This document shows, one piece after another, positions 14,865-18,262 of a DNA stretch of 40,427 bases (within the stretch, counting starts at the first letter, position 1; each line of letters starts with the position of its first letter). The notes under the pieces were generated by a model. That model was given only the letters and a program-made list of their open reading frames with translations. It had not been told where the DNA came from and did not search any database. A program made the position numbers and the translations under genes. Origin of the DNA: Promethearchaeota archaeon (GTDB lineage: Archaea > Asgardarchaeota > Lokiarchaeia > Sigyniarchaeales > SOKP01); contig SDNY01000019.1 in assembly GCA_004524535.1 (NCBI GenBank), positions 1-40,427 on the forward strand, written 5' to 3'.

Positions 14865-15620
14865 TTATTTCCAATCATCTGGAATTTTTTTTAATCTTTT
14901 AGCAGGATTCCCGACTATTATATCTCCTTCTTCTGTATTTTTATTAACGACTGCCCCAGCTCCTACGATTGTACCTTTTTTTAATCTTATTCCAGGAAAA
15001 ATGATCGAATTTGCACCCAGTGATACATTATCTTCTATTGTAGGCCCGATTAACTCGAACTCCTTGCGCAACATATATTTATCATTAGTTAATTTACTAT
15101 AAGGGCCCATGAAAACATTATTACTTATTGAACAGAATAATGGAATATATGCACCTGTTTGAATATTTGCATTAATTCCAATTGAAACATTACCATCAAT
15201 AATGCAGTTTGTACCAATTAAAGAAGAATCCCCAATTTTTGTTTTTTCCCGGATCAATACATTATGACCCGTTTGGCATTTTGCTCCAATACGAACATCA
15301 GAATAAATTATTGTTCCCGCTCGAATTATGCAGTTTTCATCGATAATCACTTCTGTCCCTTCAAAATCAGTTACTGGTTTTTTGCTTGCTATTACTTCTT
15401 TTAATTGATTTCTTTGAAAATGTCCAATAATGCAATTTTCACCTATATAGGTGCCGGTTTTAATTATTGCTTTTCCATAGATTTTTACTCCTTTAGATAT
15501 GTAAACATCGCTCCCAATTGAAACCCCTTTACCAATTACGACAAAATCGTCGATGAAAGCTTTATTATTAATATTAGTTTCAGGGTGGATTATTGAGAAA
15601 CTTTTAGGACCTTTTTCCAT
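14865..15620 (-). CDS. Hexapeptide-repeat (left-handed beta-helix) sugar N-acetyltransferase
   Basis: Hexapeptide repeats, LTNDKY, and VGAGAVV...VGNPAK. Confidence 0.88.
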   Translation of the reverse strand: MEKGPKSFSIIHPETNINNKAFIDDFVVIGKGVSIGSDVYISKGVKIYGKAIIKTGTYIGENCIIGHFQRNQLKEVIASKKPVTDFEGTEVIIDENCIIRAGTIIYSDVRIGAKCQTGHNVLIREKTKIGDSSLIGTNCIIDGNVSIGINANIQTGAYIPLFCSISNNVFMGPYSKLTNDKYMLRKEFELIGPTIEDNVSLGANSIIFPGIRLKKGTIVGAGAVVNKNTEEGDIIVGNPAKRLKKIPDDWK

Positions 15621-15683
15621 ATAACCTCTCCAATTATAATTAATATATATTTTAATAATCTTTTTAAAGAACTTTTAAATTAT

Positions 15684-15977
15684 TTATTTTACGCATCGGC
15701 ATGGAATAGAATTGCATTTGCTACATTTATTTGGATACTTATCAAATAAAGCTTTTTCAACATCAATATCTAATAAATTTGCTAATGAATTAGCCCAAGC
15801 AATTACATCTGCTATTTCTTCCGAAGCTTTCTCTTTATTAATCTTTTGATCCTTTATAATTCTTGCTAATTCTCCTATTTCTTCAACTAACCAAATAAAT
15901 GTGGACTTTTTCCCTCTTTTAGAATCTCTATTGAAATATATTTCTTTTATCATTTTTTGAAAATCAGAGATTTTCAT
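15684..15977 (-). CDS. MazG-like nucleotide pyrophosphohydrolase (start probably ATG 15977)
   Basis: LVEEIGELA...EEIADV and C-terminal CSKC..PCRC. Confidence 0.88.
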   Translation of the reverse strand: MKISDFQKMIKEIYFNRDSKRGKKSTFIWLVEEIGELARIIKDQKINKEKASEEIADVIAWANSLANLLDIDVEKALFDKYPNKCSKCNSIPCRCVK

Positions 15978-16048
15978 AATTATTAAACCAACAAGTACTC
16001 TCAATGAAATTATATATTAGAGAAATTTATGGTTTTGAGTATCACTAT

Positions 16049-16302
16049 TTAGCCTCCTGCGCTTCCTGGAGTTAAAATCCAAGCAAAAATTCCAAGATGT
16101 CCTAGAATTACGATTAAAATTAAGGTTGTTGCCAGCAATACCGTACTTATTGGACCAATTTTTACACCTATGCTTGAATCCTCGAAGAAGCGCATTTAAT
16201 CTTTTAACAGATTTATTCTGTTACAATTAGACCTGCGCCTCCAAGTGGCATCGGACTAGATTTACTTCTTCTTTTTTTTCGTCTTGACTGTCTACGAGAC
16301 AT
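16049..16302 (-). CDS. secG: Preprotein translocase subunit Sec61beta, split gene: exon 1 16302-16228, exon 2 16195-16049 (73 aa when joined)
   Basis: Joined product is MSRRQSRRKKRRSKSSPMPLGGAGL|MRFFEDSSIGVKIGPISTVLLATTLILIVILGHLGIFAWILTPGSAGG*. It has a basic N-terminus, the GAGLxRFF(E/D) motif, KIxP and a single TM helix. Not present in the ORF track. Confidence 0.9.
16196..16227 (-). other. Predicted 32-nt bulge-helix-bulge intron in Sec61beta mRNA
   Basis: mRNA reads GCGCA-GGUC-UA^A-UUGUAACAGA-AUAAA-UCUGUUAAAA-GAUU-AA^A-UGCGC. Standard BHB cuts restore the frame. Confidence 0.85.
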
Positions 16303-16426
16303 AATTAAAATTGTGCTGCAATTTATTTTTAAAAAACTCTATTATAAAAAGATTATACTACTAAAGATTTAAAATTTTATCTTGAATAAATTTTTATTAT
16401 TAGTTTTAATTATCTTTAGATAATAT

Positions 16427-18262
16427 ATGTTAAAAAAAAGAAAAATTTTATTTATACTAACTGGAACTCTTATAATTCTTGTTTTATTTTCATTCATTCC
16501 ATTTTCTTCCAAAGGATCCTTTAAAGATCAAACTATCATCGAATATCCCCAGAGTTCTGCTAGTTTAGAAGGTTCAGAAAATATTTTAATTACCAGTATT
16601 AATCGAGAGGCAGAATTAAACGGATATGGAGTAGCAAATATCATTGATTCGATCGTATTTAAAAATTTAAATACCAATCCAATCGATTCTATTTATATAG
16701 GCGTACCCTTAACATATTCAGATGATTTAATATTTTTTGAAGCAACTGGAGAGCAAGAGAATACATTATTAATTGAACGTAGTGAAAATATTATGAATGA
16801 ATATGAGATGTTCACGATTTATTTTGAGTCACCCCTATTACCGTATCAACCAAAAGAGATAAAATTTGCCCAAACTTATAAAGACATGTTAATTTATGAA
16901 AAAGAAGAAGGCCAGCTACAAAAAATTAACTACACCGCTATTGTGTATCCAGTTTTTCCATATAAAGCAGAAGGGACTATAATTGCGACGTTTGAAATAC
17001 CCTCTAGTTCAAAATTAATACCTCCAAACAAATGGGGGGATGAAGGTCCAGGGGGCAAATCAGTCATTTACGAAGTCTCCTCACTTGAACCCTTCTTAGA
17101 AGATTTAGAAGAAGAAACAATTACAATTGAATTTACAGATAATTCGATAACTAAATTAGAAATAAATGAACTACTTAGAGAAATTTATATAAATCCCTTT
17201 GGAACTATAAAAGTAAAAGAAGAGTATTTAATAAAAAACACTGGTGCTATCTCCATTGATGAGTTAAATTTTGAAATTCCAGGACCTGCCAAATCGATAA
17301 CCGTATATGATGATTTGGGTGAAATTTTAGGAGTAACTGTTGATCCTGAAGAAAATTATAGTAATCTAACTTATAAAGATCTAGAACTTGATTTATCTGA
17401 GAATCGCGTAAAAATTAACCCTGAAACTAAATTTAGATTCACAATTCAATATTTCTTGCCATTTGAAAAGTATATTTCGTTAAATTGGTTTCAACAATCA
17501 GTTAAAATGGATATTTTAACATCAATTTATCAATATTTAGGAAAAGATCAAACAATAAAAATAATAATAGAAGGATGTTTCAGCTTAGATTTTGCAAGCG
17601 ATGACCCAGATGCTATTGAGCATACTGCAAATTCTCTAATATTAGTATATACATCCGATTACGTCAGTCCTTTAGAAAGAAAAGAAATACAATTCACGTT
17701 TACAATTAATTTTTTCGATATTATATTAAGACCCTTAATTTTTATTATTTTAATTGCTTTATGCGCATCTGCTTATGTATTAGTAATTAAATCTAGAAAG
17801 GAAGAGGCTGCTATAGCTGCTTTTAGAAAAGAGTTAATTCCCATTAACGAAATCCGTGAATTCTGTTCTTTACTCGAAGAGAAAAACGCTTTAATTTTAG
17901 AAATTAGACAAGCAGAGGCAGATGTAAGGAGAAAGAAAATTATAAAAAAGAAATATAAAAATATTTTAAATAAAAATACTTTAAAAATACAAGAAATTGA
18001 AAAAGAAATTATTCCTTTTAAAAAAGAAGTTATGGAAATAAATACGACATTCGAAAATTTAGTAAAAAAAATAGAACTACTTGAGGTTGAGCGTGAAAGC
18101 GTTAAAGATAGTTTGAATCTTCTGGAAACTCGCTATAAAAGAGGACGATTGCCTTCTAAATCAGCTTATATGAAATTATCAGATAACTTTTTTAAACGAC
18201 AGAAAAAAATAGATAGAAGTATTGATAAAAGTATTCAACAATTAAGAAGCTACCTGCTTTAG
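16427..18262 (+). CDS. Ribophorin I (OST1/RPN1)-like oligosaccharyltransferase subunit
   Basis: N-terminal signal/TM, two beta-sandwich units (INREAELNGYG..., LLREIYINPFGTIKVKEEYLIKNTG), a TM helix and a cytosolic coiled-coil tail. Confidence 0.78.
   Translation: MLKKRKILFILTGTLIILVLFSFIPFSSKGSFKDQTIIEYPQSSASLEGSENILITSINREAELNGYGVANIIDSIVFKNLNTNPIDSIYIGVPLTYSDDLIFFEATGEQENTLLIERSENIMNEYEMFTIYFESPLLPYQPKEIKFAQTYKDMLIYEKEEGQLQKINYTAIVYPVFPYKAEGTIIATFEIPSSSKLIPPNKWGDEGPGGKSVIYEVSSLEPFLEDLEEETITIEFTDNSITKLEINELLREIYINPFGTIKVKEEYLIKNTGAISIDELNFEIPGPAKSITVYDDLGEILGVTVDPEENYSNLTYKDLELDLSENRVKINPETKFRFTIQYFLPFEKYISLNWFQQSVKMDILTSIYQYLGKDQTIKIIIEGCFSLDFASDDPDAIEHTANSLILVYTSDYVSPLERKEIQFTFTINFFDIILRPLIFIILIALCASAYVLVIKSRKEEAAIAAFRKELIPINEIREFCSLLEEKNALILEIRQAEADVRRKKIIKKKYKNILNKNTLKIQEIEKEIIPFKKEVMEINTTFENLVKKIELLEVERESVKDSLNLLETRYKRGRLPSKSAYMKLSDNFFKRQKKIDRSIDKSIQQLRSYLL

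Follow-up and report, generated by a model that had tools for sequence, protein, structure and literature searches.

How can a Sec61β gene be expressed when 32 nt that carry stop codons lie inside a conserved motif? This question is raised by a locus on the minus strand of the window, that is, the whole 40,427-nt stretch of DNA that was analysed. A profile search found a single Sec61_beta locus in the 3.66-Mb genome to which the window belongs (99% complete; called G000 where it has to be told apart from relatives). There, 32 nt (16227..16196) split the gene between GGAGL and MRFFED. Exon 1 (16302..16228, minus strand, with the ATG at 16302..16300) consists of 25 codons, MSRRQSRRKKRRSKSSPMPLGGAGL, and ends in PMPLGGAGL. 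Exon 2 (16195..16049, minus strand) consists of 48 codons, MRFFED...PGSAGG, and a stop codon at 16051..16049. The intervening sequence is proposed here to be a bulge-helix-bulge (BHB) intron. Since A residues flank the insert, there are three placements that give the same product, and the bulge rule of the archaeal splicing endonuclease picks 16227..16196 on the minus strand.

Are the two pieces really parts of one Sec61β? A basic N-terminus, a G-x-G-L-x-R-F motif and one C-terminal hydrophobic anchor are the hallmarks of this protein, and all of them are seen in the two pieces, also when they are aligned with relatives. Exon 1 is colinear with the N-terminal part of uninterrupted Sec61β relatives, and exon 2, which starts with MRFFEDSSIG and whose last codon ends at 16052, is the part of Sec61β with the hydrophobic tail anchor. 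The Pfam profile Sec61_beta (PF03911) matches exon 2 alone at profile positions 6-36 (E 2.6e-5, 24.6 bits, with a cut-off of 27), while the uninterrupted orthologues of two congeners (G002 and G005; 83-85% identity in the exon-2 part) match positions 2-36 with 37.3 and 39.9 bits. Thus, the break lies inside the Sec61_beta domain. Within the insert, the frame of exon 1 runs into a TAA after four codons, and the frame of exon 2 is closed by a TAA immediately 5′ of the ATG at 16195. When the whole genome was searched with blastn-short, no further copy of the 32 nt was found; besides the locus itself there were only AT-rich matches of 18 nt or less. Thus, the insert is not a repeated element. No relevant Rfam family matched positions 15800-16600.

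The predicted fold and the splicing enzymes

The geometry of the Sec61β insert is that of the archaeal hBHBh′ motif. Read 5′ to 3′ on the RNA, the order is GGAGGCGCA, GGUC, UAA, UUGUAACAGA, AUAAA, UCUGUUAAAA, GAUU, AAA and UGCGCUUCU, all from the minus strand. The outer helix has nine contiguous pairs, formed between GGAGGCGCA in exon 1 (16234..16242) and UGCGCUUCU in codons 1-4 of exon 2 (16186..16194). The pairing test places the central 4-bp helix between GGUC of exon 1 (16230..16233) and GAUU of the intron (16198..16201); four of four pairs are formed, and two of them are G.U. The inner stem-loop (16202..16226) consists of UUGUAACAGA, the loop AUAAA and UCUGUUAAAA, with 9 of 10 pairs in the geometry test and one G.A mismatch. 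The archaeal endonuclease EndA cuts after the second nucleotide of each bulge. The predicted cuts are located between 16228 and 16227 in the 5′ bulge UAA (16227..16229) and between 16196 and 16195 in the 3′ bulge AAA (16195..16197).

Can such a fold arise by chance? The 32 nt were shuffled 200,000 times while the exons were held fixed. The central helix was kept in 2,290 of these shuffles, and it was accompanied by at least three contiguous inner pairs in 133. Just 1 of the 200,000 shuffled inserts combined the central helix with 9 of 10 inner pairs. The fold of the 86-nt region has a z of -3.36 against dinucleotide shuffles. The central helix of the Sec61β motif is weak, with its two G.U pairs and a pair probability of about 0.5 (0.45-0.51). 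The minimum-free-energy fold has an extra central pair and unpaired bases at the foot of the inner stem; it keeps the 3′ bulge and widens the 5′ bulge. The strict motif (-19.0 kcal/mol) is 2.3 kcal/mol higher than this fold (-21.3 kcal/mol). In the version of the gene found in a congener (G008), the minimum-free-energy fold has no central helix.

Two EndA paralogues, each with 201 residues and above the cut-off of the tRNA_int_endo profile, are encoded at C100:30773-31375 and C84:30333-30935, and a single RtcB (561 bits) on C101. The nearest solved relatives are 3p1z_B and 3ajv_B for one EndA, and 5x89_A and 1a79_A for the other. In the accessible part of an earlier study (PMC5829648), an (αβ)2 EndA with a loop that gives a broad substrate range is reported for Asgard archaea. 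Strict BHB introns were found at the canonical place in two tRNA genes of this genome, a tRNA-Pro gene (C118) with 28 nt and the tRNA gene at C140 with 20 nt. In design and size, the Sec61β insert is like these tRNA introns. ARAGORN detected 12 tRNA genes, and the Rfam tRNA model detected at least 18 (150 of 280 candidates were scored). These low counts fit the presence of interrupted tRNA genes.

I consider it very likely that the insert in the Sec61β pre-mRNA is a BHB intron, to be spliced by EndA and RtcB. Exon and intron bases of the pre-mRNA would fold into the outer helix, the central helix with its opposed 3-nt bulges and the inner stem-loop. A heteromeric EndA made of the two paralogues would then cut after the second base of each bulge, and RtcB would ligate the exons and probably circularise the intron. 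The outcome would be an mRNA for a tail-anchored Sec61β of 73 residues. In this course of events, I infer the cleavage, the ligation and the translation of the spliced form from the gene sequence.

Distribution in the family and further split genes

Is the insert common among relatives? The Sec61β locus was read in 37 genomes; 35 are uninterrupted, and two, G000 and its congener G008, have the 32 nt. All 35 uninterrupted loci read GGAGL followed directly by MRF or IRF, so that the joint corresponds exactly to the predicted cut sites. Of the 134 genomes of the family, 128 gave a Sec61β match. An open frame of 48 residues was seen only in G000 and G008, and the others have at least 69 residues. 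Since the 32 nt are confined to these two genomes, the insert is a recent gain in one sub-lineage. The initial annotation, made from this stretch of DNA alone, had described the GAGL/MRFFED motif as split by 32 nt with in-frame stops, had drawn a helix-bulge-helix-bulge-helix fold, and had joined the exons by the bulge rule into an in-frame product of 73 residues. The stops and the closed frames can be read directly, every detail of the fold was recovered in the geometry test, and the joined reading is that of the 35 uninterrupted relatives.

The outer helix, the central helix and the bulges are identical in G008 and G000, and the two differences within the intron both lie in the inner stem. 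In G008, as well as in the sequencing run X6, the G.A mismatch is repaired by G>U at 16224, and a C-G pair is lost through G>C at 16208. Another run, X2, has G>U at 16224 only, resulting in a perfect 10-bp inner stem. These inner-stem differences, seen in G008 and the two run variants only, are not compensatory. The comparison of relatives that had been suggested at the outset showed presence and absence of the insert (2 of 37 loci), and in the few Sec61β sequences that have it the core of the motif is invariant. The exon half of the motif is particular to the intron-bearing Sec61β genes. At the same positions, G000 and G008 have nine contiguous outer pairs, while the 35 intron-less loci have four at most and 1.4 on average. 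Moreover, rare codons are used in this exon half, namely CGC (4.9% of Arg codons), TTC (21% of Phe), GGC (10% of Gly) and CTA (10% of Leu).

In four DNA runs, no contig skipping the insert was seen. Among runs recorded as RNA, none was found to contain the region 15600-16800. A junction probe for the exon-exon joint gave four stretches in metagenome contigs, all of them chance matches whose flanks share 22-23 of 75 and 39-57 of 147 positions with the exons. None of the four is an intron-less or cDNA copy.

Is Sec61β the only gene of this kind? In this genome, the genes for the ribosomal protein uL11, a MoxR-type ATPase and Elp3 are interrupted in the same manner. These three were picked by eye from scan lists with the help of known protein motifs, and each was afterwards confirmed by Pfam coordinates that continue over the break and by uninterrupted relatives. 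In the uL11 gene (C188), exon 1 spans 92-174 and exon 2 starts at 205; between them lies a 30-nt insert (175-204), in which an in-frame TAA occurs. Its minimum-free-energy fold is the strict BHB motif, with the outer helix UAGGACC/GGUCCUA and the central helix GGCU/AGCC. Pfam L11_N positions 2-19 are found on one piece and positions 21-58 on the other, and the same intron is present in four congeners. A 29-nt insert in the MoxR gene (C26:5940-5968) leaves AAA_3 positions 1-88 and 89-131 on two pieces. A 31-nt insert in the Elp3 gene (C98:11116-11146) leaves an open frame of 389 residues in G000, compared with at least 538 residues for 21 of 22 relatives that match over the start of the query; in the 22nd (G005) the frame has 491 residues and a contig end intervenes. 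Neither the MoxR nor the Elp3 insert has an outer helix (relaxed HBh′ type), and both inserts are absent from G008, the closest relative with about 95% identity, whose MoxR and Elp3 genes are uninterrupted. Two synonymous exon differences from G008 complete the central helix of the Elp3 motif in G000. The cbf5 gene is uninterrupted in this genome, with an open frame of 353 residues.

The uL11 gene was followed across the family. Inserts were found in 8 of 30 uL11 loci of unselected relatives, with one more locus ended by a contig edge, and in all 37 further loci, which had been chosen for their short open frames. The inserts occupy four positions within 114 nt, and up to three are present in a single species. 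In a core test, one to three BHB-bounded segments were removed from each locus, and success was defined as at least 25 matches to a conserved 28-residue core; the rule was a central helix of 4/4 pairs plus at least three inner or at least four outer pairs. The core was restored in 18 of 36 interrupted loci with real pairing and in 0 of 36 with a mirror-pairing decoy. Loci interrupted at the last position only gave 5 of 9 with real pairing and 0 of 9 with the decoy. In 18 of the 36 interrupted and 4 of the 9 partial loci, no solution satisfied the strict rule; to the eye, several resemble relaxed motifs. Do the paired bases change together? Among 11 introns at position D, four pairs have changed on both sides. 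As many as 95% of the cells of these introns pair, against 24-45% with slid partners, a share inflated by the selection of the 11 from about 25 for their fit to the strict motif. Synonymous codon changes at positions A and B exchange A-U with U-A pairs and G-C with A-U pairs, both exon-exon and exon-intron. A MAFFT alignment of five position-A introns, in which gaps were misplaced, is excluded from these counts.

How many genes are split in the whole genome? Ab initio scans for BHB motifs with joined frames, run in five versions over the whole genome, gave no excess over the mirror-pairing decoy. There were 57 real and 128 decoy hits with U and D of at least 40 and an outer helix of at least 6, 40 and 54 with a codon score above 4, and 91 and 168, 486 and 563, and 244 and 349 in the other versions. 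The decoy is inflated by homopolymer runs, and the scans yield no total of split genes. Many candidates were rejected as gene boundaries, for example the HdrA-like starts at C147 and C113. A genome scan had been envisaged in the initial annotation; the lists obtained contained the three split genes that were verified. For an unbiased comparison by BLAST, one 205-kb contig of G008 was set against G000, with 166 kb aligned. It contained 27 indels of at least 12 nt, and a BHB motif with joined frames was found only at the MoxR insert. Two other indels adjoin T-arm-like sequence and may be differences in tRNA introns.

The initial annotation had gone further and held that this lineage splices mRNAs and that gene callers will miss such genes. 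The three additional split genes lend strong support to this idea, as far as gene sequences can tell. Several mRNA introns, that of Sec61β among them, have probably been gained recently in the lineage. I also lean towards an ongoing gain of short BHB introns in the protein genes of this Promethearchaeia (Asgard) family, because a single genome has at least four split genes, two of their introns are younger than the split from a relative of about 95% identity, uL11 introns occupy four positions, and exon codons have changed together with the intron, completing the motif.

Weighing other readings of the insert

Could the 32-nt insertion have inactivated Sec61β in the G000/G008 lineage, leaving a decaying gene with an incidental fold? 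Sec61β is dispensable in some organisms, and the codon differences between G000 and G008 in this gene are 2 synonymous and 6 non-synonymous. The synonymous to non-synonymous ratio is 28:16 in the two downstream genes (Fisher p = 0.058) and 51:48 when a third neighbour is added (p = 0.27). Given the excess over the neighbours, a relaxed constraint on the Sec61β of these two genomes may be possible. However, all six non-synonymous changes lie outside the conserved motif, and the start codon, the stop codon and both frames are intact, with no second lesion in either species. Exon 1 is identical to that of G008 at 72 of 75 nt. The exons are as conserved (94.6-96.0% identity) as the neighbouring genes (95.6-95.8%), and better conserved than the spacers on either side (74.2% and 86.4%). 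Moreover, the gene is the sole Sec61β copy of the genome. A decaying gene would leave unexplained a motif beyond chance and an outer helix made of rare codons, and inserts of the same design are present in three other genes, including that of a ribosomal protein. I regard this pseudogene reading as unlikely.

Is splicing needed at all? Exon 2 opens with an ATG, and its piece alone matches Sec61_beta positions 6-36, so that exon 2 might be translated by itself into 48 residues, with exon 1 giving a 29-residue peptide or nothing. However, the Met is ancestral; a majority of the 35 uninterrupted relatives have ATG at this codon, and the others have ATC, ATA or ATT. The 15 nt 5′ of the exon-2 ATG contain no GGAGG-like ribosome-binding sequence, while exon 1 is intact and conserved. 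Neither the BHB motif nor the codon choices in the exons would be explained. The same scheme fails for uL11, MoxR and Elp3, whose second pieces begin inside conserved domains. Separate expression of the two pieces is very improbable.

Recoding, in which the ribosome skips the 32 nt by translational bypassing or shifts its frame, would be harder still to believe. Bypassing is known from gene 60 of phage T4 and from the 'byp' elements of yeast mitochondria, and the Sec61β gene is loosely similar in having a short stem-loop after the last sense codon and a stop four codons downstream. Frameshifting cannot join the two frames, because that of exon 1 closes after four codons and that of exon 2 is closed by the TAA before the ATG. 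Bypassing requires matching take-off and landing triplets, and these are unmatched in all four genes: CUA/UAA in Sec61β, GUA/CAA in uL11, GAA/UAU in MoxR and GAC/UAA in Elp3. In addition, the helices between exon and insert would have no role.

An artefact of assembly or sequencing, with the 32 nt absent from the DNA of the organism, is refuted by the same insert at the same place in the independent genome G008 and by contigs of two independent DNA runs from two other studies (X2 record 2 and X6 record 19), which bridge it without a gap and with more than 31 nt on each side.

Relation to known introns

If the Sec61β insert is a BHB intron, does it have known counterparts? Watanabe et al. reportedly described a BHB intron in the crenarchaeal cbf5 pre-mRNA in 2002. 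Like the cbf5 intron, the Sec61β insert is short, lies in a protein-coding frame, is bounded by a BHB motif and is patchy among related species, having been gained and lost. The cbf5 intron is removed by a hetero-oligomeric tRNA splicing endonuclease, and an enzyme of the same type is proposed here for Sec61β. Unlike the case of cbf5, the host gene is that of Sec61β, the phylum is Asgard/Promethearchaeota, and one genome has at least four such genes. Splicing of cbf5 was shown with RNA, whereas the Sec61β intron is known here from DNA. The available text of Yokobori et al. (2009; PMC2738675) treats the intron of cbf5 pre-mRNA in Crenarchaeota. A second case is the HVO_1309 mRNA of Haloferax volcanii, with a BHB intron in the 5′ UTR; in the part of that 2020 paper which is accessible (PMC7714728), cbf5 is given as the only other mRNA example until then. 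This agrees with the initial annotation, which had called mRNA BHB introns rare and cbf5 the classic case. The HVO_1309 mRNA and the putative Sec61β pre-mRNA are alike as mRNA substrates of the archaeal splicing endonuclease, beyond tRNA and rRNA. In contrast, the intron of HVO_1309 lies in an untranslated leader and breaks no frame, and the enzyme there is homodimeric.

The nearest likeness within the genome is to the tRNA introns, which share with the Sec61β insert the motif, the size range (20-28 nt here), the enzymes, a repeated recent gain and an unexplained route of arrival. The difference is that the host is an mRNA, so that the cuts must preserve the frame, and codons have to spell out the exon half of the motif. 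The accessible part of a preprint on introns of Asgard tRNA genes deals with tRNA genes only, and names Jordiarchaeia and Atabeyarchaeia as intron-rich classes.

Outside the archaea, a parallel with the splicing of HAC1/XBP1 had been raised. In that system Ire1 is the endonuclease, a tRNA-pathway ligase (in animals, RtcB) joins the ends, and splicing is a regulated stress switch. Both cases would involve splicing of an mRNA by proteins only, at stem-loops, with a ligase of the tRNA pathway. The Sec61β case differs in its endonuclease and in giving no sign of regulation. The parallel is speculative, a functional resemblance only and not a membership of the same class.

No report that joins Sec61, intron, archaea and bulge-helix-bulge was found in the literature searched, which lies mostly outside subscription journals and supplements. 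Texts that combine bulge-helix-bulge with Asgard, so far as their searchable parts go, concern introns of tRNA and rRNA, group I or II introns and circular RNAs. In its accessible portion, a 2025 paper on splicing enzymes cites only cbf5 studies for mRNA. Very probably, Sec61β joins the BHB introns of coding sequences, which in the partly accessible literature found are cited only from crenarchaeal cbf5.

What would this mean? Genes of this kind are mis-called as truncated or frameshifted, with open frames of 48 residues for Sec61β, 145 for uL11, 184 for MoxR and 389 for Elp3, and this mis-calling affects marker-gene sets, completeness estimates and phylogenies of ribosomal proteins. If the splicing is true, a translocon subunit, a ribosomal protein, an AAA+ ATPase and Elp3 would be added to cbf5, all in one Asgard genome. 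The presence and absence of introns between near-identical genomes would make the gain of introns in protein genes directly observable beside the eukaryotes, and the co-adaptation of exon codons to the splice motif would likewise be observable. Should the gain of introns be an ongoing process as well, a prokaryote closely related to the eukaryotes would routinely express interrupted protein genes via splicing by protein enzymes.

Sister split genes of Sec61β

Besides the Sec61β gene, three further genes of the same genome (G000) appear from the DNA to be split by short introns. The ribosomal protein uL11 gene (contig C188:92-619, plus strand; locus L033) contains a 30-nt insert (C188:175-204), which has a strict bulge-helix-bulge (BHB) motif and an in-frame TAA. 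Four congeners of G000 carry this same uL11 intron. Across the family, uL11 inserts occupy four positions, all inside the initial 114 nt of the conserved core, with three inserts per gene in some species.

The other two inserts are of the relaxed HBh' type, which lacks the outer helix. The gene for a MoxR-type AAA+ ATPase (C26:5430-6388, minus strand; L194) has a 29-nt insert (C26:5940-5968), and its Pfam AAA_3 match continues across the break. The gene is uninterrupted in G008, a congener about 95% identical to G000. In the relatives G017, G011, and G023, the MoxR orthologues have open frames of only 239-279 residues, compared with about 330, and these shortened frames may reflect introns elsewhere in the gene. 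The Elp3 gene (C98:9949-11596, minus strand; L222) has a 31-nt insert (C98:11116-11146) and is likewise uninterrupted in G008. The codons GTG GAC, which complete the central helix of the insert in G000, are GTT GAT in G008.

Insertion site and clustering

In other genera, certain Sec61β genes that lack the intron, namely L008 (genome G020) and L015 (G023), already have four contiguous would-be outer-helix pairs (GCGCA...UGCG). The insertion site may be pre-adapted in such genes.

Although the scans spanned the whole genome, all of the split genes except Elp3 lie inside 92 kb of one syntenic stretch: MoxR, Sec61β, and uL11 are at about 34, 56, and 126 kb, respectively, on the G008 contig C30 (loci L211-L221). 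This clustering could be due to chance or to a region of highly expressed genes. The cases were recognised by eye, and the clustering could also be a bias from that recognition.

tRNA genes and their introns

I found two inserts in G000, C188:21796-21826 (31 nt) and C188:4387-4418 (32 nt), that have no counterpart in G008. Both adjoin a GTTCGAT-like sequence, and the BHB geometry fits partly. No tRNA gene was called at either position in G000. These inserts probably represent gain or loss of tRNA introns between the two near-identical genomes. In the whole G000 genome, ARAGORN detected only 12 tRNA genes, and 18 were recovered with the Rfam tRNA model. Since the genome is 99% complete, these low counts suggest that most of its tRNA genes are interrupted in ways missed by both ARAGORN and the Rfam model.
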